A DNA stretch of 62,661 nucleotides, the filler included, from Circinaria calcarea (lineage: Eukaryota), in assembly GCA_051942165.1 (NCBI GenBank). It is 3 parts of 3 records of this genome, joined end to end, with 100 filler letters (N's around TTAATTAATTAA, not from the genome) between each part and the next. Parts side by side here need not be neighbours in the genome. Positions count along the whole stretch, not along the records: positions 1 to 20,851 come from JAVECS010000160.1; 2 more parts are not named here. One strand, given 5' to 3'. Position numbers and translations under genes: made by a program. Positions 1,102 to 48,505 of the stretch are shown piece after piece. Position 1 is the stretch's first letter, and each line of letters starts with the position of its first letter. The notes under the pieces are model-generated. The model had not been told where the DNA came from. It did not search any database and saw only the letters and a program-made list of their open reading frames with translations.

Positions 1102-2962
1102 TCAAGGTCCGATCTGTAGTTTCCGAAACCCTTCCTCGAGTTTCTCCAACTCTTGTACCACGTCCTGGTAGAAGACAGCTTGAAGTTTCGGATTGCCAAG
1201 ATCATCACCGCAACCAAAATCACAGTAGAGACATTTTTTGACAATTTCGCCGTATGTGCTACCCATCTCTCTACTTATAGAACTGACAGCACGCGTTGCC
1301 ACGAAGAACTCGGTGAGACGGTTCTCACTGTCTTGGATGTCTCTTGGTTGCTGCAATTCCCGCAAGGTCTGCGCATACCCTAGTTCTAGAAGCACTACTC
1401 CAAGGCCGAAGAGGATCGTATTACGAACGCAACTTGGTGGTGGGAAGTTTGCAGTACGATATAAAGATCCATCGGGTCCTTTAACACGAACATTCAAATG
1501 AGGCGCTGTCAAAGCAGGTGATTGCTGCGTAAGCAAGGCTTCGTCGATGCCGAAGAAATAAATCTCCTCACTTCGTAAGGACTCTTTCAGCCAGGGTGTC
1601 GCATGATATTGGAGGACAGCAGTAGCAAGTGATCGTGCAAGATGTAATCGCTCATACTGGGAAATGCGAACCGAGGGCCCTTGCTTGGATAACGAAGATA
1701 TTATTTGCTCTAGCGACGTAGCATGACGATGGTTGCGTTGAGGCGTTGACGGTGGGAAGTAGATGAAGTGTTTATAACACTCTATATCATCCAGTACCCC
1801 TAGGCATTTGTCGGTGTGCGGCAACTGCAAGACACTTCTCAACTGATCACAGAAGTTCTTCCGCGTACATAAATTCCGCAAGTTGATTGAGGGCATGCTT
1901 GTACATGCCAGAGCAGTGTCAGTGATAGAAGGGACAGTAGCCTGGAATTTCACACTCTTCTTGGTTTTCCTGACGTATACCTCCGCCGACTCATCATGCT
2001 GTCTCTTGAGCGTCTCCACTAGACTGAAATTCTGCGCATCCGACCTTATATGGTTCTCTTGGCCTTCTGTAGGATCCCCAACAATAGATTCGACGAGGAA
2101 CCATACTGGATCTCCAGGGGTTACACTACCCGACAACGTCACATGTGTGAACGCCAACTTGAACCGTACTTGCCGCGTAGACGTATTCTCAGGAGCAAAG
2201 GCCTCCAGACAAAAATGAGTGAGGTGTTCGGTATGCTTCGTGCAAGAGTTCGACAGTGCCCCGTATACATGCTTCGAAGCCTCCTGTATCAACCTAAACT
2301 TCTCAACGTTCTGGCTCAAGCCCTTCGGTGGTTTCTCAGCTTGGCGTCGGTGGCCTTCGAGTCTAGAAATCTGAGCGGAAAGGCGGATGAAATCGTCATT
2401 CAGTGATTTGAGTTCGGCCAGCGTCTCGTTGAGGCGTGATTCCGAGAAGCTAAACTTCAGCTTCTTAGCCACACGATTGCGCCACTTCTTGTCACCGGGG
2501 ATTTCTGGCTATATCTCGGTAGTGTCAGTTGGAATCCGATGATTTCTTCATTGGAGGAAGGTATACTTGACCGCTTTGTTTCATAACCTCATCCAAACCC
2601 CGGCTCTCCTTCTCAATAATGTGTAATTGCTTCGTAACCTGTACGATGATCGTCATGCAGGTGTCCTTCGAGGACGCCAATTGCTCCATTAAATGCTTCT
2701 CGATGATCGGGGAATTCCAACTGCTGTGACTCTTATCATGGAGCATACCACTGGCAACATCAGGTTCGAGAACCGACCCAAGTAAGAGACGGCACTCATT
2801 TCGAAAGATGGTCTTCTGTGTTTGAAGTTTCTGTTGGAATTGGTCCACCTTCGTTGTAAACTTGCAATATCTCACCAACGGCTTCCAACAGTCTTCGTAA
2901 TGCTCTGCAGCGGATGCTAGCAGAGGGAGGATTGTAAGTACGAATCCCACAGCTTCCGCCAT
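1102..2962 (-). CDS. HeLo-like/fungal N-terminal helical domain + C-terminal kinase-like (DUF7580-type) protein, ~600 aa, 2 exons (2962-2567, 2508-1102)
   Basis: N-terminus MAEAVGFVLTILPLLASAAEHY resembles the hydrophobic first helix of HeLo-like domains. C-terminal motifs LARSLATAVLQYHATPWL, LFGLGVVLLELGY, YGEIVKKCLYCDF and FYQDVVQELE are typical of DUF7580-type proteins. The 58-nt intron 2509-2566 (GTATAC..CTGAC..TAG) joins the two ORFs in frame. Confidence 0.75.
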
Positions 2963-3263
2963 GAAGTTGATCGGATCGTGGTATTCAAACAGACTTCGTC
3001 GCCATTCAGATACTCATGTACATGACATATAACCGCCAGACAAGGTTCTGTTCGTCCAATCATCCATTGAAGAGTCAATGAAGCCCTGTACCTGCATAGA
3101 TAAGGTACAGCAAGCATCCTTAAGGCGATTATCAAACTTTCGTCGAAGGATGCTTGCCCCTGCTGCTCCGGTGGCAAGGGATTTGTAGTTTTTATTCTGC
3201 GACGTTGCCTGATTGCAGATTATACTCGAGACGCGGGGCCAGCCGGCACAATCATAGCGGAAG

Positions 3264-6200
3264 ATGGCCATGGCATATGATACTTTGGTCTTTACCCAGG
3301 AGTGGATTGATGGGAATAATTTCCAACGTCTACCTCAAGAAGATCAAGTGGACCTGAGCTTTGCGCAAGAGTTGTATGATGCATGTATTGGATTCTTCAC
3401 GAAAGTTTTGCAGGGCATCTCCCGATCCGGTAGCGACATTGTCCAGAAGTACCAGCTTGGCACTTTGAAGGAGGAGTGGGCTCGGTTGTACTTATGGGGC
3501 AGCGGATTTGAAAATGGCAAACTGGCTGGTGTACTCGCCCAGTCAGACGAGCTACGAGACAGTGTTCTCGAACTTCTCTCGGGCACTAGCCAACTGCTCA
3601 TCCACAGTAAGCAATGCATCCACTCTTGTTTAAAATCCGTCAAGTAACAGAGATTGATGAGAGGACACCTTTTAGATCTTGCTACGAATCGTCCGTCGAT
3701 ATCCTCGGACTTGAATGTCCAAGTCGCTGAACTCAGCAGGCTCGCGGATCGATCAAGACTCATCACCTCTAGTTCTCTTAGTAACTACGCGGAGGACGCT
3801 GAATGGTTTACCATCGATGAAAAAAACGACCAGGAAAGACCAAGTTCTGCCTTGGTAAGAAGGTGTACGAAGCTGGTTGGTGAAACCGAGCTGACGGCCA
3901 AAGAGGGCAGAAACGGCTGCCTATCAGGAGCGCTCAGCGTTATCATTCTCTGCAAAGCACGATCCATCAACTTGCAATGAAGACTCTGATGCCGAAGTGG
4001 ACAGCTCGGATGAATCTTGCTCTGATTTCTATTCGACACTTCGATGTCGAATAGACTGTCTGATGGATCTACTGCCGACGATGGAGCAAAGCCTTGCGCA
4101 GTCTAGGGCAATAAGGAAAGCACCTGCATTGAGGATCCCGTTTACTGTGTCCGAGGCTGCTCGACCCTTTGTGCTCAACGTGCACGACAAGTTTAGCATG
4201 GCTGATAGCAAACTGGTCGAACGACTTGGTGAGTCCAATTGGCAAAGATACGTGACAGTCAGGGCTCGAATGAATCGAATCGCCAGCGTCAATGATGTCA
4301 ACGGGGAGACTCGTGAAGTCGAATGGACTAAGCCGGTGGTGTTTGGGAAAAACCCGCCTCAATCTATGTTCACCCCCTATTCGGTGTTTCATGATTCCGG
4401 CATGGGTACAAGCATGGCATCGACCTCACGGTATACTGCATCAGTGGCCTCTCATACCTCCTTCATCTCCAGCCAAGCGGAGGAAGGTAAAGCAACGTTA
4501 CGTGTGCCACCAACGCCCCCAGAAGTAGCTCTAAACGAGCCTTTTAGATGCTTTATATGCGGCCACATGCTCTTCAAAATCCAGAATCGTGTTGATTGGA
4601 AGTGGGTCAACTTGGAGAAGCCATCGAATAGAGGCTAAATCGTTTACAGATTACACGTTTTCGCTGATCTCCAACCTTATATCTGTACTTTCGAATCCTG
4701 TAAAAGCAAAATGCTAAAATTTCCAACGCGGAAGTTGTGGTCCGAACACGAGTTCCCTGAACATCGGCAGAGTCGTACGTGGCATTGCCCTCTTTGCTCA
4801 ACAATATCACACAGCTTCCAGGATCTCGAGGATCATCTTTCGATGAGCCATGCAGACCATATGCCCTCTACGTCGCTTCAAGTCATCCTCAACACAGCTG
4901 AGACTAAGGATGCCGAACCAATCGAAGAGCAGTCTTGCCCTTTATGCAAGATATTACCGGGGAAATCTCAGAGGACCTTCGCTAAGCACGTCGGCCGGCA
5001 CATGGAAACTATTGCGTTGGCTGTTCTCCCCAGAGAAACGGAAGACGATTCGGATGAGAGCTCACTCGACTATGCTGCAGAGGATAGTGCGTCCATTAGT
5101 GTGAAAGACGTGTTAACGGGACAAGAAGATTCTGGAAAGGAAGAAGGCAACTCGCCACTCTATCCCAGCACGTTACAGCTTCCCCTGCCTTCTCTCACTC
5201 TTAAGTTCTCATTGGAAGAAAGTAAGGAGAGCAGACGTTGGCCGAACCCAGATAGCTGCCGATTTGTGAAAGATATTGTGGGAACTTCGCTCATACGCTC
5301 AATCCAAGGACCTGAGAAATGCCCGCTAGTGACTTGTGAGCATCACAAAAAAGGGTTTGCTTGTAAACGCGATAGCCGATATCATGCTTTAGCTCACTAC
5401 GATGGCAGTACGACTTGTGGATTCTGTTCTAACTTAGATTTTGCGAAAGACGCGCCTTATTATAACCATGATGCATTCAAACGCCACCTTACTTCTGTGC
5501 ATGGAGTTGACGCAACGTCACTACCGAGTAGTGGCATCAGGATAAGTCCTAAGAAATCTGCGGCAGACGTCTCAGGTAAATGTTGTACTTGTTCAGTAAC
5601 TTTCTACAAGCCCCAGGAATTATATGATCATCTTGATGAGTGTGTACTTCGTTTCATATCGAGTCTGCCCGGCAACGAAGGGGAAAAGTGTTCTAGTCAG
5701 CATAGCGGAGCCGAAGGTACTGTGGGAATCCCTGATCCGCCAAGATCACCTCCGCAACTGCCAAATAAACCCCTTCAACGACATCCTGACGACACTGCGA
5801 TTTGGCCGCTTTCAGAAGATGCTGGCCAGGTGACGGTATCGAAAGAGCTTTCCATGAAGTCATCAAAGAGAAACAGCATTTCATCTATCCCCAACGTTGA
5901 GAAAACACTCAAAACACCCCGTGAAGCTCTAGTGCAGCCACACAGGCCAAAGGCATATGCAAATATCCCGTCGGTCCATCGACCACCGCTCGTATACACT
6001 CCTACAGTACAAGATGACAGCATACCCCGACAAACAGCTACTCGAAGCTCGCTGCACGAATATGAGGAACGGCTGGTGTCGAAGACCCAAAAAGCCGAGG
6101 AAGAAAGGAAAGAGGACAGTAGTCAGCAGCCGACATACTGCTACTGTGATGGGGGTAGTTATGGCGAGATGATGGCTTGCGATAATGCTGAGTGTGAGAA

Positions 6201-7173
6201 GGAGTGGTTTCACTTACAGTGCATAGGGTTGACGTACTCCCTGCCAAGAGACTGTAAGACTTGGCGACATTATGACAGTAGCAGTAAGCTAACTCTATCT
6301 GTAGCAAAGTGGTATTGTAGGGACTGCGTTACTAATCTGCGACCAATGCACTACGTGACTCTACAACAAGCCCAACAACAACGAGGAGCCCAAAGAGAAG
6401 CAACTCCGGATTCAATTGAAAATATAACTACCACTATCCCGGAGGCTAGAAGAGTCAGCGGACATACAGAATTTTTTATGAGACGTGAAAGTTTAGTGTT
6501 ATCGCTCATAAAAGAGAGACAGTGGAAGGAAGCAGAAAAGCTAGAAATGGAAGTTGTTACAATGAGGGAAAGCCTTTTGGGAGCAGAACATGCAGATACA
6601 CTACACAGTATGGGGAATCTAGTAAAGATATATAACGCACAAAGGAAATGGGAAGAAGCTGAGAAGCTAGGATTGCATGTAATGGAGACGAGAAAGAAGG
6701 TGCTTGGTGCAGAAAATATGCATACACTAGACAGCATGGAGATCTTAGCAAGAATATTCAGTACTCGAAGGCAGTGGAAAGAGGCTGAAAAGCTGGAAGT
6801 CCAAGTTATGGAGTTGAAACAAAAGATACTTGGCGAAGAACATCCTGATACACTTGACTACATGGGACTCTTGGCACGGACATACTTCTTACAAAACAAA
6901 TGGATTGAAGCTGAAAGCCTGCAAATTAAAATTATAAAGACGAGAGAGAGGGTGCTTGGCCCAGAACATGCAGATACATTGGACAGTATGGGCCTCTTAG
7001 TAAAGGGGTACTGTGAGCAAAAGCGATGGAAAGAAGCCGAAGAGCTGCAAACGCAAATTTTGGAGACGAAGAGGAGGGCGCTTGGCGCAGAACACCCTTC
7101 TACACGAGCCAGTATGGCGAGTTTAGTAAATATATTCTCTATGCACGGACGAGAGAAATCTGGTGAGCTATAA
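3264..7173 (+). CDS. Mosaic protein: helical N-terminus + acuF-like C2H2 zinc-finger region + KLAP1-like C2H2 fragment + ING-type PHD finger + 5 TPR repeats
   Basis: Predicted introns 3607-3675, 3855-3903 (AAG acceptor, least certain), 4602-4649 and 6254-6304 link the ORFs in frame. Motifs: CFIC..WKLHVFADLQPYICTF..C..W.EHE..H..WHCPLC..CPLC..HVGRHMETIALAVLP; YCYC..SYGEMMACDN.EC.KEWFHL.CIGL..KWYC.DC; 42-aa repeats W.EAE.L...V...R..VLG.EH.DTL.SM..L. Confidence 0.8.
6520..7149 (+). repeat. Five tandem 126-bp (42-aa) kinesin-light-chain-type TPR repeats
   Basis: Units start at about 6520, 6646, 6772, 6898 and 7024, each with W.EAE.L and LG.EH..T..SM motifs. Confidence 0.9.
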
Positions 7174-12174: not shown

Positions 12175-15100
12175 TTAGCTGGCGTTGCGTGCTATTGATA
12201 TTAATCGCTTCGAAGCTTGGATACTCCTCTTTCTGAACAAATGCGTTTCAGATCCGCTCTTGACAGAGCTATCCTTGTCGCTTCCACTCCTAAAACGAAA
12301 GATTCGCTTCGCAGTAGATACCGGTGTAAACTTGGGCCCCTTTTCTGGTTTCGTTGGAATTGAAATGAGGCCGTCAGAGTGGGAGTTTGTTTTAACTTGA
12401 GATGTAGTCGATTCTAGCGAGTACATCATCGGTTGCGGTAAAGATTGAAGAGGACCCCATGAATTAACACGATTGGAGAGTGGTATAAACTGAAAAGAGT
12501 CTGCGAAACGCTCGAGGAGGATTGTGGCTAACGCTGTTTCAGAGCCTGATCTGTGTTCGTCAAGCACATTGTTTTCAGAATTATCGTGAGACGAACGGAC
12601 ATTTGCGCCCGCTCTGAGAAGTTGTGCTGTGGCTGACTTGTTTTGGGTTACAATAGCTGCTTGTAAAGGGCTTCCGAAGATACCAGCTTGCATATGAATG
12701 TCGGCTTTGCCCTCAAGTAACATCGTCATGATTTCTTTCTGCCCGAAGAACGAAACCTGTTGTAGCAGACTACCAAATAAGTTATCTCTAGTGTTTATAT
12801 CAGCCCCTGCTTCTAGTAGTTCACTTATGATTTGTACGTCTTCTGTACGTAGCGCAAGTTGTATAGAAGAATTCAGGACTTCTTGCGAGACCTTTCCGGT
12901 AAGACCACAGTTTAGGAAAAGGCGTACAATGGCTGGATGCCGGCCTAGTATCGCGGCTCTCATTGCATTACCAAAGATGCCCCCTTCTTGATGCACTTTT
13001 GCTTTCCCATCGAGTAAAAGCTCCACCACTGCCTTACTACCAGCAAACGAGGCTGCTTGTAATGCGGTACCATGGAAACCACTTTGGTCATTTATAGGTG
13101 CAGCGTAATCTAATAGCAACCGTACAAAGGTCTCCTGAGAGCTCGCAGCAGCTTCACGGAGTGCTCGCCCTAGAATATGTGTATCAACCTTTTTCTCGGT
13201 CAGGATGTTTCTTAAGCTCTCCTGATCACCGTCCACGACTGATCGAATCACTTCACTTTCCACCGAAGTCTGGAACGGTGAGCTCCAGACATAGCCGAGA
13301 TATTTGCTCTCGGAGGTCGATCTCACTTTAGGCCCAAATAATTCGAGCAACTCTCGCTGCATTTCCCCTTCCACTAGGGGTCGATTCTTCTGCAATTCTT
13401 TGACACTAGTCAAAGCTCTCAAGGTCCATGAAGTATATGGATGCTTTAATCCGAAGCACTTTTCTTGACTGCTTGAAGCTTGATCCAACAGGACCTCCGC
13501 ATCCTTCAAATATCCTCGCAACGCATAGACTGCGCTAAGACTTCTCATTGTGGTCAATGTATCTGGATGATGATTTCCAATTCGCATTTTCTGCATTTTT
13601 AAGATTTGCTTAAGTCGCAGACTAGCATCATCATATCGCTGCTGAAAGCGTATGTAGTCGGCAAGCCTACGAGCAGCTTTCAGGCAGTACGGATGGTCGG
13701 TTCCTAGCGTTTGCTCCAAGCCGTCAAGAGCATGACGGCTTATCGCTTCAGCACCTGGCATATAGCCTGTCCAAGCGAGTATAGCAGCTAAATCGGACAT
13801 GCGGTTCAATGTAAAAGGATGCTTGTCCCCATAAAGGCATATTGACTTTCGTACAACATCACAAGACAAGAACTCCGCTACACCGCTCGGTTCGCAGTCC
13901 AACGCGAGCTTCGCCAAAGTGTCAAGAAGCTTGACATGAGAGACTTTATCGGAAATGGTGAGATCCGCATTTTCGAGAGCATCCCGTAAAAGGTTGTACG
14001 CATCTTGATGTCTACCTTGACATCTCATACTCAACACCAAATTGTCGGCAGTCAATAAAGTGGGGTCTGATGCTATACCAGAAATCCTAATCCTTGCGGT
14101 CAAACAGCTTCTGCTATAAAGTTCCGCGTCCTTGCATTGGTCACGGTTGCGTAGCATAGAAGCCAGCTTATTCAAGCAGAACAAGGTAGCCACATCAACT
14201 GGTCCAGGTGACTGCTGTTCTCCGAATAACCTCACTGCTCTCTGGAACTTTTCTTCAGCTTCCTTATAAAGACCCTGGTCTTCAAGTGCCAACGCAAGTT
14301 GGCTAAGGTCTCTAGCTTCAGGGCTACATTGCGTCGAGATGATCAACAATTTGACTGCTCTCTGGAATTTTTCTTCGGCTTTCTTGTAATGACCCTGATC
14401 TTCAAGTACTAAAGCAAGTCGACCAATTTTTCTAGCTTCAGAGCTACCTTTCGTTGAGACAATAAATTCTTCACAGCCATCCGGCGTGGTTGGCAAGTTT
14501 CTGAGGCGGCCGTGTAACTTAGGCCCCGGAAAGTGTCTCAAAAGCACCTTCATGCTATCATCGGCTAAGCAGTACATGCTCCTCATACTCTGCATCACAA
14601 TCTGGTAATTCGTACTGGAGCCTGCTAAGAACTTAGTCATATCAATGTGGTTGGCGTACAACCCTATAGCATCACAGTGTGGTAGAATAGCAGATTTCTT
14701 GTTGACAATCTAGGAAGAACAGTTAGAATAGACAAAAAGAAAAAAAAAGACTTTACACGATCGTGGGCTGTCTTACCATAAGATTGTCAAGGACTGGCAG
14801 AAGCTCGTAATAGCAGATAATCTTTCGGGCAAATGTTTCATGAGGAAGCCACTTGTTGAAGCTGTCGCTTATATAGCCTAGCTGTGACATATACCTATCT
14901 CCTGAGATATAGGATGTAGATTTATTTCCGAGGGCATAGTCGATGTTAGACATAGCAGCTGCAAACTCTATCCAGTCTTTCTCTCGAAAACCGAAACTGG
15001 GAGTACCGAAAAACATAATACCCTTGATGGATGCCCGTAGAGGAGAACCGCATTTCAGTAGGAAAGCTTGCAGAATTAGCCCTCCTAGGCTATGAGCAAC

Positions 15101-15539
15101 AAAGATAACAGGTCGTTTTTCCTTATCAAAATTCGTTAGTGTGAGTTTTCTGGACTTTTCAAGATTGACGGACATTCTCCCTTTTCTTCTCGAAGCCTTG
15201 GAGCAGAGCACAGGACGCATCAGAAAAGGATTTCCCTTCCCGAATAAAGCTTCTGGCATCATACCCGCAAGTAAAAACCCGCGCATATGGGATTTCATTT
15301 GGAAGTAAATCTCGAATCCAGGGTTCTCCATCACTACTCCAGGTGGTTTGCCAATTGCATGTGATGCCGTGCACAAAAACCAAACTAAGTTTTCATCAGC
15401 TCAAAAATCTATAGGTAACCCGAGATGCCTACTCTATCGCAACAGCATTACCGTTCAACGGCTCTGCGATGACTTCCACAGCGTTGATATCTTGGGGAGG
15501 CTGTGCTGTGGCTTCGGAGTGAATAGATGGCAGATCCAT
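12175..15539 (-). CDS. SesB-like alpha/beta hydrolase + TPR + ankyrin-repeat protein (NLR-like architecture without NACHT/NB-ARC), 4 exons
   Basis: ATG 15539 (MDLPSIHSE..); introns ~15385-15432, 15122-15173 and 14710-14776. Hydrolase motifs DLVFVHG, WIRDLLP, ARVFTCGYDA, PVIFVAHSLGG, GIMFFGTP, CYYE, ANHIDMTKF. Then TPRs (YGDKHPFTL, LGTDHPYCL, IGNHHPDTL, FGLKHPYT) and ankyrins (GTALQAASFAGSKAVVELLLD, GSPLQAAI). Confidence 0.85.
14234..14446 (-). repeat. Recent 120-bp tandem duplication of one TPR unit
   Basis: 14234-14326 and 14354-14446 are closely similar at nucleotide level (EARKIGRLALVLEDQGHYKKAEEKFQRAV vs EARDLSQLALALEDQGLYKEAEEKFQRAV). Confidence 0.9.
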
Positions 15540-15777: not shown

Positions 15778-16360
15778 ATGCTGATAGGTTAATACCATGT
15801 TATCGTTGAAGAATGCGTCCGCCACAAAACGAAAAGGGTATGAGCTGACACAGTAAGTCAATTATTATATAGGCTGTGTGCCACACCTTTTATTTAAATG
15901 GGCCGATTAGGAACAGCGACATCATGCATAGTAATATATAAGTGGAGAATAAGTATTCTGCTCAACGTGCTGATAGGTTAATATTATAGTAGGCTGTGTG
16001 CCACACCTTTTATTTGAATGGGCCGATCAGCGGAACAGCGCCATCATGCACAGTAATATTTAAGTGGAGAATAAATATCTTGAACCATTCCGCAAGGCCT
16101 TATTGTCGCCTTATTTTCGCCTTATTTTCGCCTTATTTTCAAGAGCCTCCAATTCTGCCTTATTATTAGGAGAGGTCCATTAGATAGTGCTGATAGGTCA
16201 ACATCATATTAGGTTGTGGGACACACCTTTTGTTCAAATGGGCCCATCAGCGGAATAGCGGCATTATGTACAATAAGATTTGGGTGGGTCCCGAGCTATT
16301 CTGCAAGGCTTCATTTTCAAGAGCCTCCAATTCTGCCTTATTACTAGGAGAGGTCGATGC
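15778..16360. repeat. Degenerate triplicated repeat in the divergent promoter region
   Basis: Core AGGCTGTGTGCCACACCTTTT..AATGGGCC at 15871, 15991 and 16211. TGCTGATAGGT(T/C)AA at ~15779, ~15968 and ~16188. TTTTCAAGAGCCTCCAATTCTGCCTTATT twice (~16136, ~16314). GCCTTATT(G/T)TC x4 near 16097-16140. Confidence 0.85.
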
Positions 16361-16451
16361 ACAAGCTTTGTTCGAGAGAGCACGAACGCGCCAAATTGAA
16401 AGAAGGTCTCGGGGGCAGCTTTCTCGGCTTCGCCTAAACTCGATCGAGGGA

Positions 16452-19142
16452 ATGGAGCATTTGCGCGACGATTACAACGACTTCACCTTCCCTTACAAAG
16501 TTCATCTGCTCTGCGACCCCTCAGCTCCGCTACTCGACAGGCAGGAAAGGAATCTGAATGATTTCGTTCAGTTACCTCAACTACTTGGGTGGAAGATTCA
16601 TGAAAATGGCGATAGAGAGTTCGAAAACGGTTCGTTGTTGATCGACGAGGTGATGCAAAGATGGCTCTACTTCGAGGTCCTAGCACAAGTCTTCGGCCAT
16701 CTTCCCGGCTACCAGTGGGATCACTTTGTTATAATTGACACTTCTGGCCAGTCTTACATCAATACGCTGCAGCTACCAGATTACCTAGAGCGATGGTTGG
16801 ATAGCGAGAAGAAGAGTCCCACCACGGAAAGAAATCGCCGATTAATCCGTATTCAGCAAGTACTGGACAGAGCGCGCGTGTACGTGTCACAGCACTGCAC
16901 AGTTCCAAATCTTGACAGCAACGCTAGATGGGAGATTAGTGACCTTCTTGCACTGAGTTTTATGGTCTTGGGAGAGACTTTAACGCGAGCACTGAATCTG
17001 ATCCGAAGGAAAGTCGGGTTCAGTATTAATGGTTGGTGCAGCCACGACTCGCGCAATCAAGGGTGGGGCTACAGCAAGATCATACTTCAGAAGCTCAGAG
17101 CCGATGGATGGTGTGCCAAAGCGCTTCATATGCTCCAGGCTTTACTTAGAGGCAATACTATTGGTCTTGTATACTTATTCACACTTAGGGAATCGAGCTC
17201 CAAAGGTGGGGATCATGCAAAATGCACAGCTTCTGAATGCCGAGAGAAGGAATTTAAACGCATACTGGGAAGGCCGGTCGATCCAGTCCAATATCACCAT
17301 TGTTCCGCTGAAATCAAAGACTTCTGCTTCGAGGAGCCAACGCAGTACGTAGGACCTGGTCAGACACCCAAGTATCCCATCTGTACTACAGTGGAGAATT
17401 TCAAAGGCGATATTGAGGGCCGAGCCCTAGCTGCAATCATCGATAAAGGAAAAATCCCACTGTTTCGGTTTCAGAAGACCCGACGGAGTCTTGAACTTGT
17501 CGAAATGAGCCAGTCATTTGACAAGTCGTACGCTATCTTTTCACACGTCTGGGCGGATGGCTTTGCTAATTTGAACAATAAAAACGAGATGAGCCTATGT
17601 GTGCTGAACATGTTCTCCAAGATACTGGAACAAGTTGCCATACAGCGGGCTGGTACTAGCTCACCAGTGCAAGAATTGTTCTGGATCGATACGCTTGCGA
17701 TACCAGTACAGGGAGAGTTCACGGCGCAACGCTTCAAAGCTATAAGTCAAATGCACAACATATATACTCATGCCAAATATACGATAGTTCTTGACTTGAG
17801 TCTCATGCGGGTCACTATGGGCTCCGGCTATTCAAATCCTGCCATGAAAATAACCATGAGTAAATGGATGACACGGCTATGGACTTTGCAGGAAGCTGTT
17901 CTAAGCAAAAATCTGTTCTTCTATTTCCAAGATCACATTTACTCGATGAATAATCTTGAAGATATGTTCGCCAAAGAAGACTCTGAGCTTCACTCTTGTA
18001 TACCATCGCTTTCTCGAATTTATCATGATGGTATCCTCGGCCAAATGCGACCAAAAATACATGAGGAGTTTCGGAAGGATGAAGGTTGGAAACCCAGGTC
18101 TGACTTTCTTGCTGCAGTCTGGAAGGCTACCCAATGGAGATCCACTTCACATCTAATCCATGAGACTCTGTCTTTAGCCACAATGCTCAATGTCAATACA
18201 GAGCTCTTCGCACCTCCAAGCATTTGGCCAGAGAAGACAGAAGGTTATCAGCAAGACTGTGATGAAAGGATGATCTCTCTTCTATCTCTCTTTGCGGCCA
18301 TATCGCCTTGTCCAATTCCGCCGGGTATGATTTTTCTTCCAGGTCCCAGACTGTTGAAAAATGGATATGGCTGGGCTCCAAGGACTTGGCTGTCATCTCG
18401 TGAAATTGATTCACCGGACCCTCTTTCTCTGCCTGATGCAGGAAATACACGACTAACCGCATCCGAAGGCCTCGAAGTACAATTTCCTGGTTTCTTGCTA
18501 CACGATTTAGGTGATAGTAGAAACGAGTTAGATATGCGCGAAAACTTCTTTTTCTCTGCTGACTCTAGACTTCTAGACTGGTACCGTGTCGAACCTGCTG
18601 AGGACCCGAAGCGTTTCCCAGGAGCGGAGAGACTCCTCGGACGTGATCTTGCAATAATCGTGTCTCGTCTACCAGTTGTAGACCTCAGAGAGATTGCTCT
18701 TTTCGTTGCCATTAAAAGAACCTGGGGTGGTATTCACTACGTGGAGATACCCAACCGGGTGTGGATCAGTCGAGAAGAAAGGCAAGAAATGCTGCAGGAA
18801 TGGAGCGACAAGCATCGCAAGGGCGATCCTGATGCGATGTCTGCCGGAGAAAGGCTATCGCCGAGTGAGAAGTGGTGTGTTGATGGTCCAACTCAGCCCG
18901 CCGTGGTGCCAGGAGAGGAGAAGAGAAAAGGAGATGCCCAAGGCAAAAAAGAAGCCCAGTTCTCTGAAACCAATGACCTTGGAAACGGCAGACCAAACCG
19001 CGTAGAAGCGCCAGAACCTAACAATTGGCTCGTACGTAAGGCGAAAACCTTGACGTGGAGCACTAAACCGTCAACGACTTCACGCTGGCAACGTTACAAA
19101 GCCAACAAAAACGTTGCTGTTGGAGATGGAGGTTACCCATAA
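16452..19142 (+). CDS. HET (heterokaryon incompatibility) domain protein, ~896 aa
   Basis: HET motifs YAIFSHVWADG, LFWIDTLAIPV, AISQMHNIYTHAKYTIVLD and SKWMTRLWTLQEAVL. N-terminal QRWLYFEVL and GWC motifs, and C-terminal WAPRTWL, fit this HET subfamily. ATG 16452 chosen because the upstream open frame lies within the promoter repeat. Confidence 0.88.
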   Translation: MEHLRDDYNDFTFPYKVHLLCDPSAPLLDRQERNLNDFVQLPQLLGWKIHENGDREFENGSLLIDEVMQRWLYFEVLAQVFGHLPGYQWDHFVIIDTSGQSYINTLQLPDYLERWLDSEKKSPTTERNRRLIRIQQVLDRARVYVSQHCTVPNLDSNARWEISDLLALSFMVLGETLTRALNLIRRKVGFSINGWCSHDSRNQGWGYSKIILQKLRADGWCAKALHMLQALLRGNTIGLVYLFTLRESSSKGGDHAKCTASECREKEFKRILGRPVDPVQYHHCSAEIKDFCFEEPTQYVGPGQTPKYPICTTVENFKGDIEGRALAAIIDKGKIPLFRFQKTRRSLELVEMSQSFDKSYAIFSHVWADGFANLNNKNEMSLCVLNMFSKILEQVAIQRAGTSSPVQELFWIDTLAIPVQGEFTAQRFKAISQMHNIYTHAKYTIVLDLSLMRVTMGSGYSNPAMKITMSKWMTRLWTLQEAVLSKNLFFYFQDHIYSMNNLEDMFAKEDSELHSCIPSLSRIYHDGILGQMRPKIHEEFRKDEGWKPRSDFLAAVWKATQWRSTSHLIHETLSLATMLNVNTELFAPPSIWPEKTEGYQQDCDERMISLLSLFAAISPCPIPPGMIFLPGPRLLKNGYGWAPRTWLSSREIDSPDPLSLPDAGNTRLTASEGLEVQFPGFLLHDLGDSRNELDMRENFFFSADSRLLDWYRVEPAEDPKRFPGAERLLGRDLAIIVSRLPVVDLREIALFVAIKRTWGGIHYVEIPNRVWISREERQEMLQEWSDKHRKGDPDAMSAGERLSPSEKWCVDGPTQPAVVPGEEKRKGDAQGKKEAQFSETNDLGNGRPNRVEAPEPNNWLVRKAKTLTWSTKPSTTSRWQRYKANKNVAVGDGGYP

Positions 19143-28609: not shown

Positions 28610-30058
28610 ATGCCATATAACACTCGCCGTAAATCGCTCTCCCTGCCTGCTCTGGGCATCCAGCTGCCGAATGGCTCACGCGCTCACCGCCCTTCGCCGC
28701 CAAAGTCCTCCGCCGCCAGCGAAGCCCATCCGCCTCCAGCAAAGAAAGTCAAACGCTCACATACATCATCGACACCGTCGCCTACTTCACCATCGCGATC
28801 GAGATCATCAACTACGGCCTCTACCAAAACGGTCTCGTTCGTGGAGCGGCCCAAAAGCAGTGGTCGAAATGCATACGAGCACACGCCTCCGCCTTCGCCC
28901 GGCGCAGAGGAGGATGCGAAAGTTGATACGGAGGGAATCAACGACGATATTGTAGTTGGTGTGATCGAGCAGCTGGAGAAAACCGGGAATCGGCCACATC
29001 TGGTCAAGGAGCTGGCCGCGGTACTCTCGAATGTGAACGATGCAGTTGCAGGGTAGGTCGACTTGCTAGACCTGGCTTGATCGTTGCTCCTTGTGGAAGT
29101 GGTCATATACTTATGTTGTTGCAGTTCTGCCAACCCTGCTGCCCTCCTTTCGTCTCGTCTGGCCGCCTACATGCGACGTTCTACCTGGACTCCACTTTGT
29201 CCATGTCCAATTGGAAAAGAGCTGATCCCCGTTCATCCACGTAAAGTGTACTACTTCTTGACGACAATAAAACGCCAAGAAATGCCCATTGGCTCTTCTG
29301 GCATTCTATCCATACCGTCGGTCGGCGTCGTAGGTAGTGGTGGTAAAGGGGGTAAGAGGATAATATCCCCAAGTCTCAGTAACGCCAGTATCGATGAGGA
29401 TGTGGAAGGTATCGAAGATCGAAAACGTGCAGCTATGAGTCCGAGTCCAGAGGTCGATTTATCAGATCCCGATTTAGGTGCCACTGTACCCGGTGCGGAC
29501 GACGAATTCACTCCTTCAACGCCTGCAGGGTCATCTTTCTCCGCTCGCTCAAGTTTGGCGCGAGATGGTAGCTGCGGGGGCTCATCCGAGCCCATCAACC
29601 TCGCACACAACCATCGAGGTGCCACCCCACCTCTCGAAGGCGATGAAAAAGAATTCACGCAAACAGCTAGTAGCATGCGGATGAGGGGAATGAGCTTGGA
29701 TGACTCTACTATCAGACAGTCAAAGGAAGTTGAGATTGCCATTACAGGAATCCAAACCGATATGCATCTGGACGAAACCGAAGAGGAAAAGGTGAAAAGG
29801 AACAGCGAGGTTGCCGCAGCCCTTTTTGGTGGCCATCACCACCAAGCGCAAGAAATTCCGCTGGCACTGATGAGCAGCCCGCTCGTGAAACCTCTGCACG
29901 CTACCATTGCCAATCAGTTTGGAAAGGAGAATATTGACATTGAGATGGGAGAGACCGCATCGATATTGGGAGATCAAGGGCTTGGTTCCAGCTGGGATAT
30001 CAAAAAGCCGGAGAACGTGGATCTGGACGAACTGGATGCTTTGTTGGGTGGTTTCTAA
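28610..30058 (+). CDS. GDS1-like winged-helix domain protein, 2 exons
   Basis: MPYNTRRKSLSLP start; DDIVVGVIEQLEKTGNRPHLVKELAAVL..SANPAALLSSRL..YMRR..PIGKELIPVHPRKVYYFL; intron 29053-29124; acidic C-terminus PENVDLDELDALLGGF. Confidence 0.8.
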
Positions 30059-47086: not shown

Positions 47087-48505
47087 ATGGGGACAATGCT
47101 CCAGCAACCTGGGATGGTCTCAAATTTAGAGCCGATGAGTGCGCCAACCAGCTTCACTGCTCGAAGGTCGGCGGCGTCGAACTTACCTAATTTTGAACTT
47201 CCTCCACCGCCACTGTCCCAGAAGTATCCTCCGCTATCAACATTGAACATTACTCATCATACCCCTGCGACTTCTAACGTAGGTAACCTACTTACACCTC
47301 CCTCGAACGTTCCCGGAGATAGCCTCAGTCCAGTCTCGTCGGGAACAAACAGCGTCAACAACACCGCGGCGAATCAAGGTCTGCCACCATACACTCCTAC
47401 TGGCTTCTGGCCTCCGCCTGGCTCTGGCTTGACACCTTTTGCTTCTTTTGGTACAGGGACCACGCCGCAACCTTGGGGCCAGGGAACCAATTTCATGCCC
47501 TTCCCGCCTAGGGGCATGTTTTCCCCATCATTGAACTCAATGTTGCGCAATAACTCAAACTCACCCGCAGCTAATGAGGGTGTTCCACCACCGCCGCCAT
47601 ATGACTTTCAACTACCTCCGTTTCCAAGCTCGTTATCCATGTCAGCTCCGGGGAGCTTACCAGCTTTAGTGGCTCAACAGCAGCAACAGGCGATGGCCTA
47701 CATGAGTGCTCAAACTCCAGGATCCGCCTCAACTACTCAATCATCACCTGGGAATCCGTCAGAACCGTACATGCAGCGACACCCTCCAACACCGACATAT
47801 TACAGCGGCTCGCAACCCTCCTCAACCCCACAGCAAAGTCACTTTCCAGCTTTCGCAGCTCCGTCGCCTATACAACAAAGCCCAATGAGTGCGGGTGCAC
47901 CCAACCCTAGGATATCACCGACAAATTCTCAACCTGCGGTTCTTCAGCCTTCCCCGTCACAACCGCTGCCCCAATTCGCAAGACCTTTCAATCCGTATCC
48001 ATTACCAGCCATGTCAGGCCCCGTCATGTCCAATGTCCATAGTCCTGGAGGTCAGATGTCACTAGTTGGAGGGCTGCCAGGGGGCATGATGCCTGGTTTT
48101 AACAGTGGACACGCTGCACAGTTACAACAGATGTATGGGACGCCCCAGCAGACTCCTCACAACGATCGTCCCTTCAAATGTGACCAATGTCCCCAGAGTT
48201 TCAATCGAAATCACGATCTAAAGAGGCATAAAAGGATCCATTTGGCTGTGAAGCCTTTTCCTTGTGGGCATTGTGAAAAAAGCTTTTCCAGAAAGGATGC
48301 TTTGAAGGTAAGCTTGCAGGCAAAACGATCTTGAAGCGGAGATGGTAATTAACTGGCGATATAGAGACACATACTGGTCAAAGGTTGTGGAAAGGCACAT
48401 GGGTCTGATCCAAATCGAAAAGCCGGGTCAATGTCCCCGGTCGAAAAGTTGGAGGCTTTGAGCAGTGATAATGACGACAGTCCTATTCTTGATGGCCACA
48501 ACTAG
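47087..48505 (+). CDS. C2H2 zinc-finger transcription factor (Pro/Gln-rich, two C-terminal fingers), 2 exons; true start may be upstream
   Basis: RPFKCDQCPQSFNRNHDLKRHKRIHLAVKPFPCGHCEKSFSRKDALK|RHILVKGCG; intron 48308-48364; first in-frame ATG at 47087, frame open from 46784. Confidence 0.9.

Follow-up and report, generated by a model that had tools for sequence, protein, structure and literature searches.

Within a 62,661-nt stretch of the Circinaria calcarea genome (GCA_051942165.1; the whole stretch is called the window below, and its positions 1 to 20,851 come from JAVECS010000160.1), we analysed a pair of spliced genes that lie head-to-head on opposite strands, with a DUF7580 gene to the left and a gene encoding a zinc-finger protein to the right. 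Their ATGs are at 2962 (minus strand) and 3264 (plus strand), leaving 301 bp between them (2963-3263), a distance that a preliminary description of this DNA had put at about 300 bp and that the sequence confirms; this shared intergenic region presumably acts as a bidirectional promoter. The left gene (1102-2962, minus strand) encodes 600 amino acids in two exons (exon 1, 2567-2962; exon 2, 1105-2508; stop codon, 1102-1104), separated by a 58-nt intron (2509-2566) with the signals GTATAC, CTGAC and TAG, and two full-length homologues (P0005 and P0096; P numbers denote homologous proteins throughout, and L numbers loci) align to both exons. The right gene (3264-7173, plus strand) encodes 1222 amino acids in five exons (3264-3606, 3676-3854, 3928-4601, 4650-6253 and 6305-7170; stop codon, 7171-7173), the junctions of which match those of the annotated homologues P0138, P0130 and P0132. 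The intron calls in both genes rest on splice signals together with homologues, and translation of the two spliced coding sequences gave one stop each, at the terminus. No second copy of either gene was found within the window.

The right protein proved to be as composite as the preliminary description had it, which spoke of several unrelated modules: zinc fingers, a probable PHD finger and five TPRs were found with Pfam and by comparison with homologues. It opens with a helical domain of about 115 amino acids (3264-3606, plus strand), recognised from family alignments and AlphaFold2 (AF2) and here called the LWG domain, with the motif LGRLYLWGE.F..G.LD. This domain matches no Pfam family; when 1.84 billion cluster representatives were searched with its profile, 1035 matched at E <= 1e-3, of which 374 reached E <= 1e-10, and most of the matches are short first-exon fragments. 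Among 65 right-family matches, 12 carry the LWG domain at their N-terminus, including the source-annotated P0130, P0132, P0138, P0174, P0177 and P0183. Its AF2 model is a helical bundle with a predicted local distance difference test (pLDDT) value of 70, for which a fold search found no specific solved fold (best Z 7.1, under the noise level for helical bundles); a likeness to the coiled-coil domain of ZAR1 was considered and rejected, as its Z of 6.1 is indistinguishable from that of unrelated bundles. An Atlas feature search with the domain gave scores of at most 0.84, at chance level, and several of these chance-level matches are kinase-fold families (RIO1, WaaY/ABC1, YrbL and FTA2).

Further along lies a zinc-finger core (4536-5030, plus strand), split by the intron 4602-4649 and recognised from a conserved Cys/His pattern and from PF26082 on homologues. 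Its membership of PF26082, which we take to be the acuF-like C2H2 zinc-finger family, is by homologue annotation and not by direct scoring: the window protein is 51-57% identical over the core to homologues with a precomputed PF26082 match (P0130, P0132, P0138, P0140 and others), and Pfam scored zf-C2H2_2 weakly on the core itself (E = 0.079). A literature search for the acuF zinc finger in fungi gave, among the matches listed, titles and abstracts on unrelated Aspergillus topics. A second conserved C2H2 cluster (5230-5660, plus strand), the first finger of which is degenerate in the window, was delimited by alignment to P0122, P0123 and P0132. The predicted PHD finger (6136-6327, plus strand) was recognised from splice signals and from the PHD fingers of the relatives P0337, P0338, P0339 and P0138, and is interrupted by a 51-nt, in-frame, stop-free intron (6254-6304) that has GTAAGA as donor, CTAAC as branch point and TAG as acceptor. 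Because of this interruption, the Pfam score on the unspliced open reading frame (ORF) is weak (PHD-1st_NSD, E = 0.054); once the 51 nt are removed the Cys/His pattern is compact, and a reading based on the ORF would add 17 residues and mask the finger. The protein closes with five TPR_10/TPR_12 repeats (6538-7150, plus strand; TPR_10, E = 5.9e-46 over five stretches; TPR_12, E = 5.4e-29; Pfam). A conserved F-H-D-S-G-x-G-[ST]-S motif, presumably resembling a DSG-type phosphodegron, was also seen in the central region of the protein (right exon 3, about 4390-4420).

The two genes are found together far beyond this window. A metagenome contig collection was scanned with the left-family alignment, taking 10-kb flanks, and partners were sought by tblastn with right-family proteins. 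This yielded 52 loci, of which 11 end at a contig edge upstream of the left gene and were excluded from the count; a right-family gene lies upstream on the opposite strand in 39 of the 41 loci that have DNA there, and the two unpaired loci (L039 and L044) are 5'-truncated left copies. These loci represent at least 14 distinct lineages, with left proteins 27-85% identical to one another, and the pairing extends even to the remote DUF7580 relative L049 (23-26% identity). The same arrangement is seen in named genomes, with left and right genes on adjacent locus tags in Xylographa bjoerkii (MMC18_006521 and MMC18_006520) and Lambiella insularis (MMC13_007780/MMC13_007781), and seven further pairs of left and right homologues sit on records of identical size. 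The divergent pairing in other genomes, whose enrichment the preliminary description had put forward as a check, is borne out in these loci. One case does not fit: in Xylographa pallens, the right homologue P0338 and the left homologue P0005 are on different contigs, a separation that would be expected if this species has several paralogous pairs.

For the purpose of comparing the pairing with background synteny, the partner side of the left gene was set against a control flank, i.e., 8 kb on its far side. At the same tblastx threshold, the control flank is common to 13 of 78 locus pairs and the partner side to 62 of 91; by tblastn at E <= 1e-3, the partner side is common to all 14 representative loci, and a core hidden Markov model (HMM) agrees in the six loci scanned with it. 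In other words, the pairing is not due to chance, and the two genes form a conserved divergent unit beyond background synteny. In addition, pairwise identities of the left proteins correlate with those of their partners' LWG domains (Mantel r = 0.80, reached by 0 of 5000 permutations, 15 distinct pairs), which shows joint inheritance and duplication and does not by itself imply co-evolution. The loci come from metagenomes; several pairs per genome are suggested because several distinct pair types occur under one record prefix and because one contig carries L030, a complete pair, together with L039, a truncated left copy. Taken together, the two genes are conserved and inherited jointly as a module of Pezizomycotina, which was sampled mostly from lichen-forming fungi.

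The spacing between the two genes was measured as well. The gap between left and right N-termini found by tblastn is mostly 190-630 bp; it widens to 1257 bp in L028 and to 5949 bp in L041, whose two genes are separated by a retroelement ORF (SH3_retrovirus; L041 3600-9540). Among 13 representative related loci, the counterpart of the window's spacer measures 160-535 bp in all but L028, where it is 1229 bp. Across 14 spacers (the 13 loci and the window), the heptamer ACAGCCT occurs in 8 (shuffle maximum, 7) and the hexamer AGGCTG/CAGCCT in 11 (shuffle maximum, 10). The heptamer is absent from the window's own spacer (2963-3263), and with so small an excess over the shuffled spacers it was rejected as too weak to be claimed as a common promoter motif.

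What the left gene is paired with has a constant front and an exchangeable rear. Partner tails were surveyed by Pfam scans of partner ORFs in the representative loci and from the annotations of homologues, and the variable C-terminus anticipated by the preliminary description was found in many classes. Myb domains are present in L007, L008, L020, L041, P0123 and P0146; a bromodomain with Zn2Cys6 and C2H2 in L010 and L015, and a bromodomain in L014; GATA in L025, L028 and P0142; C2H2 in L030; KIX with a ubiquitin-like domain in P0133; PHD, with or without further families known by accession only, in P0337, P0338, P0339 and P0128; and ankyrin repeats in P0135. A protein kinase tail is present in 18 of the 65 right-family matches, of which P0151, P0171 and P0177 have the N-terminal LWG domain. 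The window's own right gene combines PHD and TPRs, and L001, L017, L021, L024 and L027 have tails without a recognisable domain. As for NOD (nucleotide-binding oligomerization domain) families, NB-ARC was found in P0139, AAA_16 in P0136 and NPHP3_N in P0185, with the NB-ARC or AAA_16 of the first two placed after the zinc-finger core; P0139 and the left homologue P0013 are on records of identical size (14,706 bp). The term "NOD-less" in the preliminary description is therefore right for the window, where neither NB-ARC nor NACHT was among the Pfam matches of the right-gene exons at E <= 0.1, but does not extend to all relatives.

The most distant partners (L033, L035 and L040) retain just the LWG domain and the next ~80 amino acids (core-HMM positions 20-214) and have no zinc fingers. 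In L040 this front is followed by TPRs, and in L033, L035 and L051 by a region of ~320 amino acids of unknown nature and a PNGase-like body (Transglut_core plus Rad4), these partners spanning L033 1883-4058, L035 6807-8985 and L051 6815-8643. Every paired locus has the LWG domain. What accompanies the DUF7580 gene throughout is therefore the stretch of ~200 amino acids at the N-terminus of the partner, and not the zinc-finger core to which the preliminary description had assigned that part, since the partners in L033, L035 and L040 do without zinc fingers. Between close haplotypes of one lineage, the left genes are 97-98.5% identical in nucleotides, whereas the figure drops to 94-96% in the right core and 82-88% in the tail, and homology stops beyond the partner tail. 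Some copies are decaying, with an in-frame stop in the left gene of L027 (L027 10001-11452) and a frameshifted partner in L051 (8300-9100). We also observed that L001, L010, L014, L020 and L025 share a conserved gene 2-7 kb beyond the left gene, at differing positions and orientations, which suggests that these five are orthologous loci; their partner tails differ despite it, with Myb in L020, bromodomain/Zn2Cys6/C2H2 in L010, bromodomain in L014, GATA in L025 and none recognised in L001.

The left protein can be described less directly. Residues 212-456 of its exon 2 match DUF7580 (PF24476; E = 5.3e-21, 76 bits against a cut-off of 27), as do all 27 left-family members, and no mention of DUF7580 was found in the literature searched. 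For its structure we turned to the full-length homologue P0005 of Xylographa pallens (61% identical to the window protein), which was folded with AF2 from a 27-sequence alignment (mean pLDDT 63, predicted template modelling score 0.55). The model shows a two-lobed protein-kinase fold at residues ~208-592. Kinases and pseudokinases make up all 50 Foldseek matches listed against the PDB (E from 3e-4, probability 1.00), among them Nek7, the MLKL pseudokinase 6bwk (rank 3), JAK2 JH2, IRAK4 and BRAF, with E ~3e-4 to 2e-3 for kinases and pseudokinases including 6bwk, and VIA-align superposed the model range 208-592 on kinases with Z 10.8-11.7 over 150-198 residues. The left-family profile compared with PDB chains gave chance-level matches only (E >= 0.089, no kinase). 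Based on Pfam and the fold of this model, the predicted protein-kinase-like domain of the window protein lies at 1105-2280 (minus strand), with DUF7580 inside it at ~1141-1875. The preliminary description had recognised a kinase C-lobe-like domain; its kinase-like nature holds, but it is not a C-lobe alone, as both lobes are covered by the fold of the model. Reading the alignment by eye against the secondary structure of the model, we found the glycine loop, the HRD aspartate and DFG to be absent from the left family, with K-x-S-W-R-S-E-D at the catalytic-loop position; because these motifs are missing, the proteins of this family are most likely pseudokinases.

Several smaller features of this family were seen along the way. 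A disordered insert of ~60 amino acids between the kinase lobes holds a conserved basic patch, KKxKKS; in the window this is KKxKKSVRF at ~1940-1970 (exon 2 residues ~180-190), which, judged by its sequence, could serve as a nuclear-localisation signal or be phosphorylated by a basophilic kinase. Some relatives of the right protein, it may be noted beside this patch, end in a protein kinase domain. Two further motifs are near-invariant in the DUF7580 family: C-x2-H-x2-H-x2-H-x-C at the start of the kinase N-lobe (window 2208-2243, exon 2 residues 89-100) and C-D-F-G-C-G near the C-terminus (window 1207-1224, exon 2 residues 429-434), and both may be metal-binding sites.

In front of the kinase-like region lies an N-terminal helical domain of 132 amino acids (2567-2962, minus strand), which opens with a hydrophobic helix and which we regard as a candidate HeLo/4HB-like (four-helix-bundle-like) module on the basis of the homologue model and of look-alike features. 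The P0005 model has helices at 4-128, predicted with low confidence (pLDDT 30-74), and then two or three connecting helices before the kinase fold. Among Atlas language-model look-alikes of this N-terminus, a HeLo cluster (29% of its members) scored 0.95, a PigL_N cluster (13%) 0.90 and a SesA cluster (14%) 0.87; the window's N-terminal exon has no Pfam match at E <= 0.01. A relationship with HeLo-type domains is at this point a lead only.

We compared the pair with known two-component systems of immunity and cell death. In plants, paired NOD-like receptors (NLRs) such as RGA4/RGA5, RPS4/RRS1 and Pik-1/Pik-2 are encoded head-to-head, and one partner carries exchangeable extra domains. The pair is likewise head-to-head with exchangeable domains in one partner, but neither window gene encodes an NLR (Pfam found no NB-ARC or NACHT), and the candidate executor is a pseudokinase protein. 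With fungal NB-ARC-TPR NLRs, the right protein shares the same type of C-terminal TPR_10/TPR_12 repeats; unlike them it has no NOD and shows no DNA-level homogenisation of its TPRs. In animals and plants, MLKL has the same order of parts as the left protein, namely an N-terminal helical domain, connecting helices and a C-terminal kinase fold without catalytic motifs, and the MLKL structures 6bwk, 5ko1, 8slz and 4mwi are among the Foldseek matches of the left-homologue model. This likeness is not specific to MLKL, considering that BTK, BRAF and FAK score equally with the left kinase fold and MLKL does not rank above other kinases. There is also no sequence-level similarity to a solved kinase or to 4HB, homology of the N-terminus to 4HB or HeLo is not established, and no RIPK3-like upstream kinase lies beside the pair in the window.

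Closer to home, the accessible part of PMC12881547 describes some fungal HELL domains as fused to kinase or pseudokinase domains, and reports two- to three-gene cell-death clusters in fungi. In the nwd2/het-S and het-Q1/het-Q2 clusters, as far as the available portions of PMC10197012 and PMC9815663 go, a candidate executioner similarly lies beside a modular, variable, sensor-like gene and is inherited with it as a unit. Unlike nwd2/het-S, the pair has no common amyloid motif; unlike het-Q1/het-Q2, it has no protease; and unlike these fungal two-gene clusters, the window partner has no NOD and the constant adaptor is a helical module of ~200 amino acids belonging to no known family. The survey of N-terminal effector domains of fungal NLRs (PMC9815663) contains neither "zinc" nor "C2H2" in its available text, and its supplementary tables could list such architectures. 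The pair thus resembles the fungal executioner/sensor clusters and the plant paired NLRs and is a member of neither.

How, then, should the pair be read? We consider it likely that the two genes form a coupled module, and, because they stay together across so many fungi, the pair is probably one undescribed signalling unit. The facts fit a two-component signalling unit best, because the linked genes co-duplicate, the left protein has an MLKL-like domain order, the partner joins a constant front to an exchangeable tail, and some of its relatives are of NLR type. Gene A (left) would supply the helical domain with its hydrophobic helix, the connecting helices and the full kinase fold without catalytic motifs; gene B (right) would supply the constant N-terminal ~200 amino acids, usually an acuF-like zinc-finger core, and the exchangeable C-terminal module; and both would be transcribed divergently from the ~300-bp spacer. 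In the proposed sequence of events, the variable tail of B would bind a cellular target or a cue, B would pass the signal through its constant N-terminal module to the pseudokinase protein A, and the N-terminal helical domain of A would be released and act, most likely, on membranes. By analogy with RIPK3-MLKL or NWD2/HET-S, the outcome would be regulated cell death or a non-self response. That the two proteins couple physically, that the signal runs from B to A and that it ends at membranes or in death is what we infer here. A complex prediction for the intronless left protein of L010 (631 amino acids) with the LWG domain of its own partner (126 amino acids) gave an interaction prediction score from aligned errors (ipSAE) of 0.01 in both runs, which, having been made without controls, gives no verdict.

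A sensor/executor role in cell death is plausible. The cell-death or immune reading taken by itself, which argues by analogy, is tentative and on the doubtful side, and a conserved, coupled pseudokinase/modular-partner module that serves a cell-death or non-self response stops somewhat short of being probable. In its most specific form, which we think unlikely, the proposal would be a usually NOD-free, amyloid-motif-free, necroptosis-like pathway of filamentous ascomycetes, in which LWG sensors with swapped-in baits or detectors (chromatin-reader, DNA-binding, TPR, NB-ARC, kinase or PNGase-like modules) would each be hard-wired by a bidirectional promoter to their own MLKL-like pseudokinase executioner, the pair duplicating and diversifying as a unit.

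A number of observations weigh against a role in cell death or immunity. The structural statements on the left protein all depend on a homologue model of mean pLDDT 63, whose N-terminal part stays at pLDDT 30-74. The preliminary description had called the N-terminal helix HeLo-like: a hydrophobic helix is indeed present, but the HeLo likeness is weak, with Pfam HeLo matching just 2 of the 27 left-family members (best E 0.18) and no HeLo or HELL homology passing threshold. No common amyloid-type motif was found when the right N-terminal profile was compared with the left profiles (hhalign probability 1.5% with the left N-terminal profile and 0.2% with the full-length one). Tandem Repeats Finder detected no tandem repeat in the DNA that encodes the TPRs, so the homogenisation typical of the repeats of fungal NLR sensors is missing. 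The left protein is 40-60% identical across classes, unlike many fast-evolving immune genes. Finally, the majority of the tails are common modules that bind chromatin or DNA (Myb, GATA, Zn2Cys6, C2H2, bromodomain, PHD and KIX), and such nuclear tails suit a function in transcription no less well than they suit a decoy role.

This last point leads to the strongest alternative, to which we give real if minority weight: a co-regulated signalling or transcription module without cell death, in which B would be a chromatin- or DNA-binding regulator and A a pseudokinase scaffold that sets its localisation or activity, e.g., in development, stress response or symbiosis. The tails could then be real working effector domains rather than decoys. 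Besides the nuclear character of most tails, the strong purifying selection on the left gene (97-98.5% identity between haplotypes) and its conservation across classes favour such a module, and the KKxKKS patch, read by eye, could be a nuclear-localisation or phosphorylation site. Set against it are the NB-ARC, AAA_16, NPHP3_N, TPR, ankyrin, protein kinase and PNGase-like bodies, which do not bind DNA, and the language-model features in which the left N-terminus resembles HeLo/SesA-type domains; moreover, swapping the class of DNA-binding domain between orthologous loci would be unusual for a transcription factor.

The two genes might also be neighbours without any functional coupling, held together as conserved microsynteny by a bidirectional promoter that is not easily broken up. 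The loci belong largely to one fungal class, so that common ancestry contributes to their arrangement, and the other flank is itself partly common among the closer loci (the 13 of 78 pairs given above). Yet the pair is kept down to 23-35% identity of the left protein (L035, L040 and L049), where that other flank is no longer common, and the partner body is replaced behind a kept N-terminal module; the parallel divergence of the two proteins (r = 0.80) also speaks for coupling, and duplication as a unit fits the pair types found under the same prefix and the presence of L030 and L039 on one contig. We therefore regard mere microsynteny as quite improbable. Even less credit, amounting to very little, goes to a selfish toxin-antidote or drive-like element spreading as a unit with A as toxin and B as antidote, an idea prompted by a multi-copy unit with decayed members (L027, L051, L039 and L044) and by the retroelement ORF of L041, given that the pattern is deep and apparently vertical with orthologues in several classes, and that Pfam scans of the partner flanks, which included no dedicated transposon search, gave no clear transposon family apart from that ORF.

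The wider surroundings in the window add some context to the signalling unit that we favour. An ORF of 844 amino acids with TPR_12/TPR_10 and ankyrin repeats lies at 12175-14709 (minus strand), with a possible further exon at 14753-15400, and a HET-domain ORF of 981 amino acids at 16197-19142 (plus strand). Both are 5-12 kb from the pair and belong to families typical of fungal non-self recognition; because these families are abundant, we treat such neighbours as a weak clue. Local capture of the TPR tail of the right gene from the neighbouring TPR/ankyrin gene was rejected, the identity between them being 26-28% only. Elsewhere, the window contains an ORF with a GDS1 winged-helix domain (29081-30058, plus strand) and an unrelated coding stretch for classical C2H2 zinc fingers (48158-48331, plus strand).

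Judging from the available parts of the literature, regulated cell death and immunity in fungi are understood through a few two-gene clusters, i.e., NLR/HET-S-type amyloid signalling and the gasdermin/protease system, and reviews mention MLKL-like fungal pseudokinase proteins without naming a partner or trigger in those passages. For one such MLKL-like fungal family, the locus described here offers a concrete and widely conserved candidate partner. With it comes an N-terminal adaptor domain that could be assigned to no family (no Pfam match and no specific solved fold), and the exchangeable tails behind this domain amount to a natural experiment on what is being sensed. Should the role of the pair prove to be transcriptional, a pseudokinase and a regulator that duplicate as a unit and swap their input or output domain would still be a regulatory design new to fungi.

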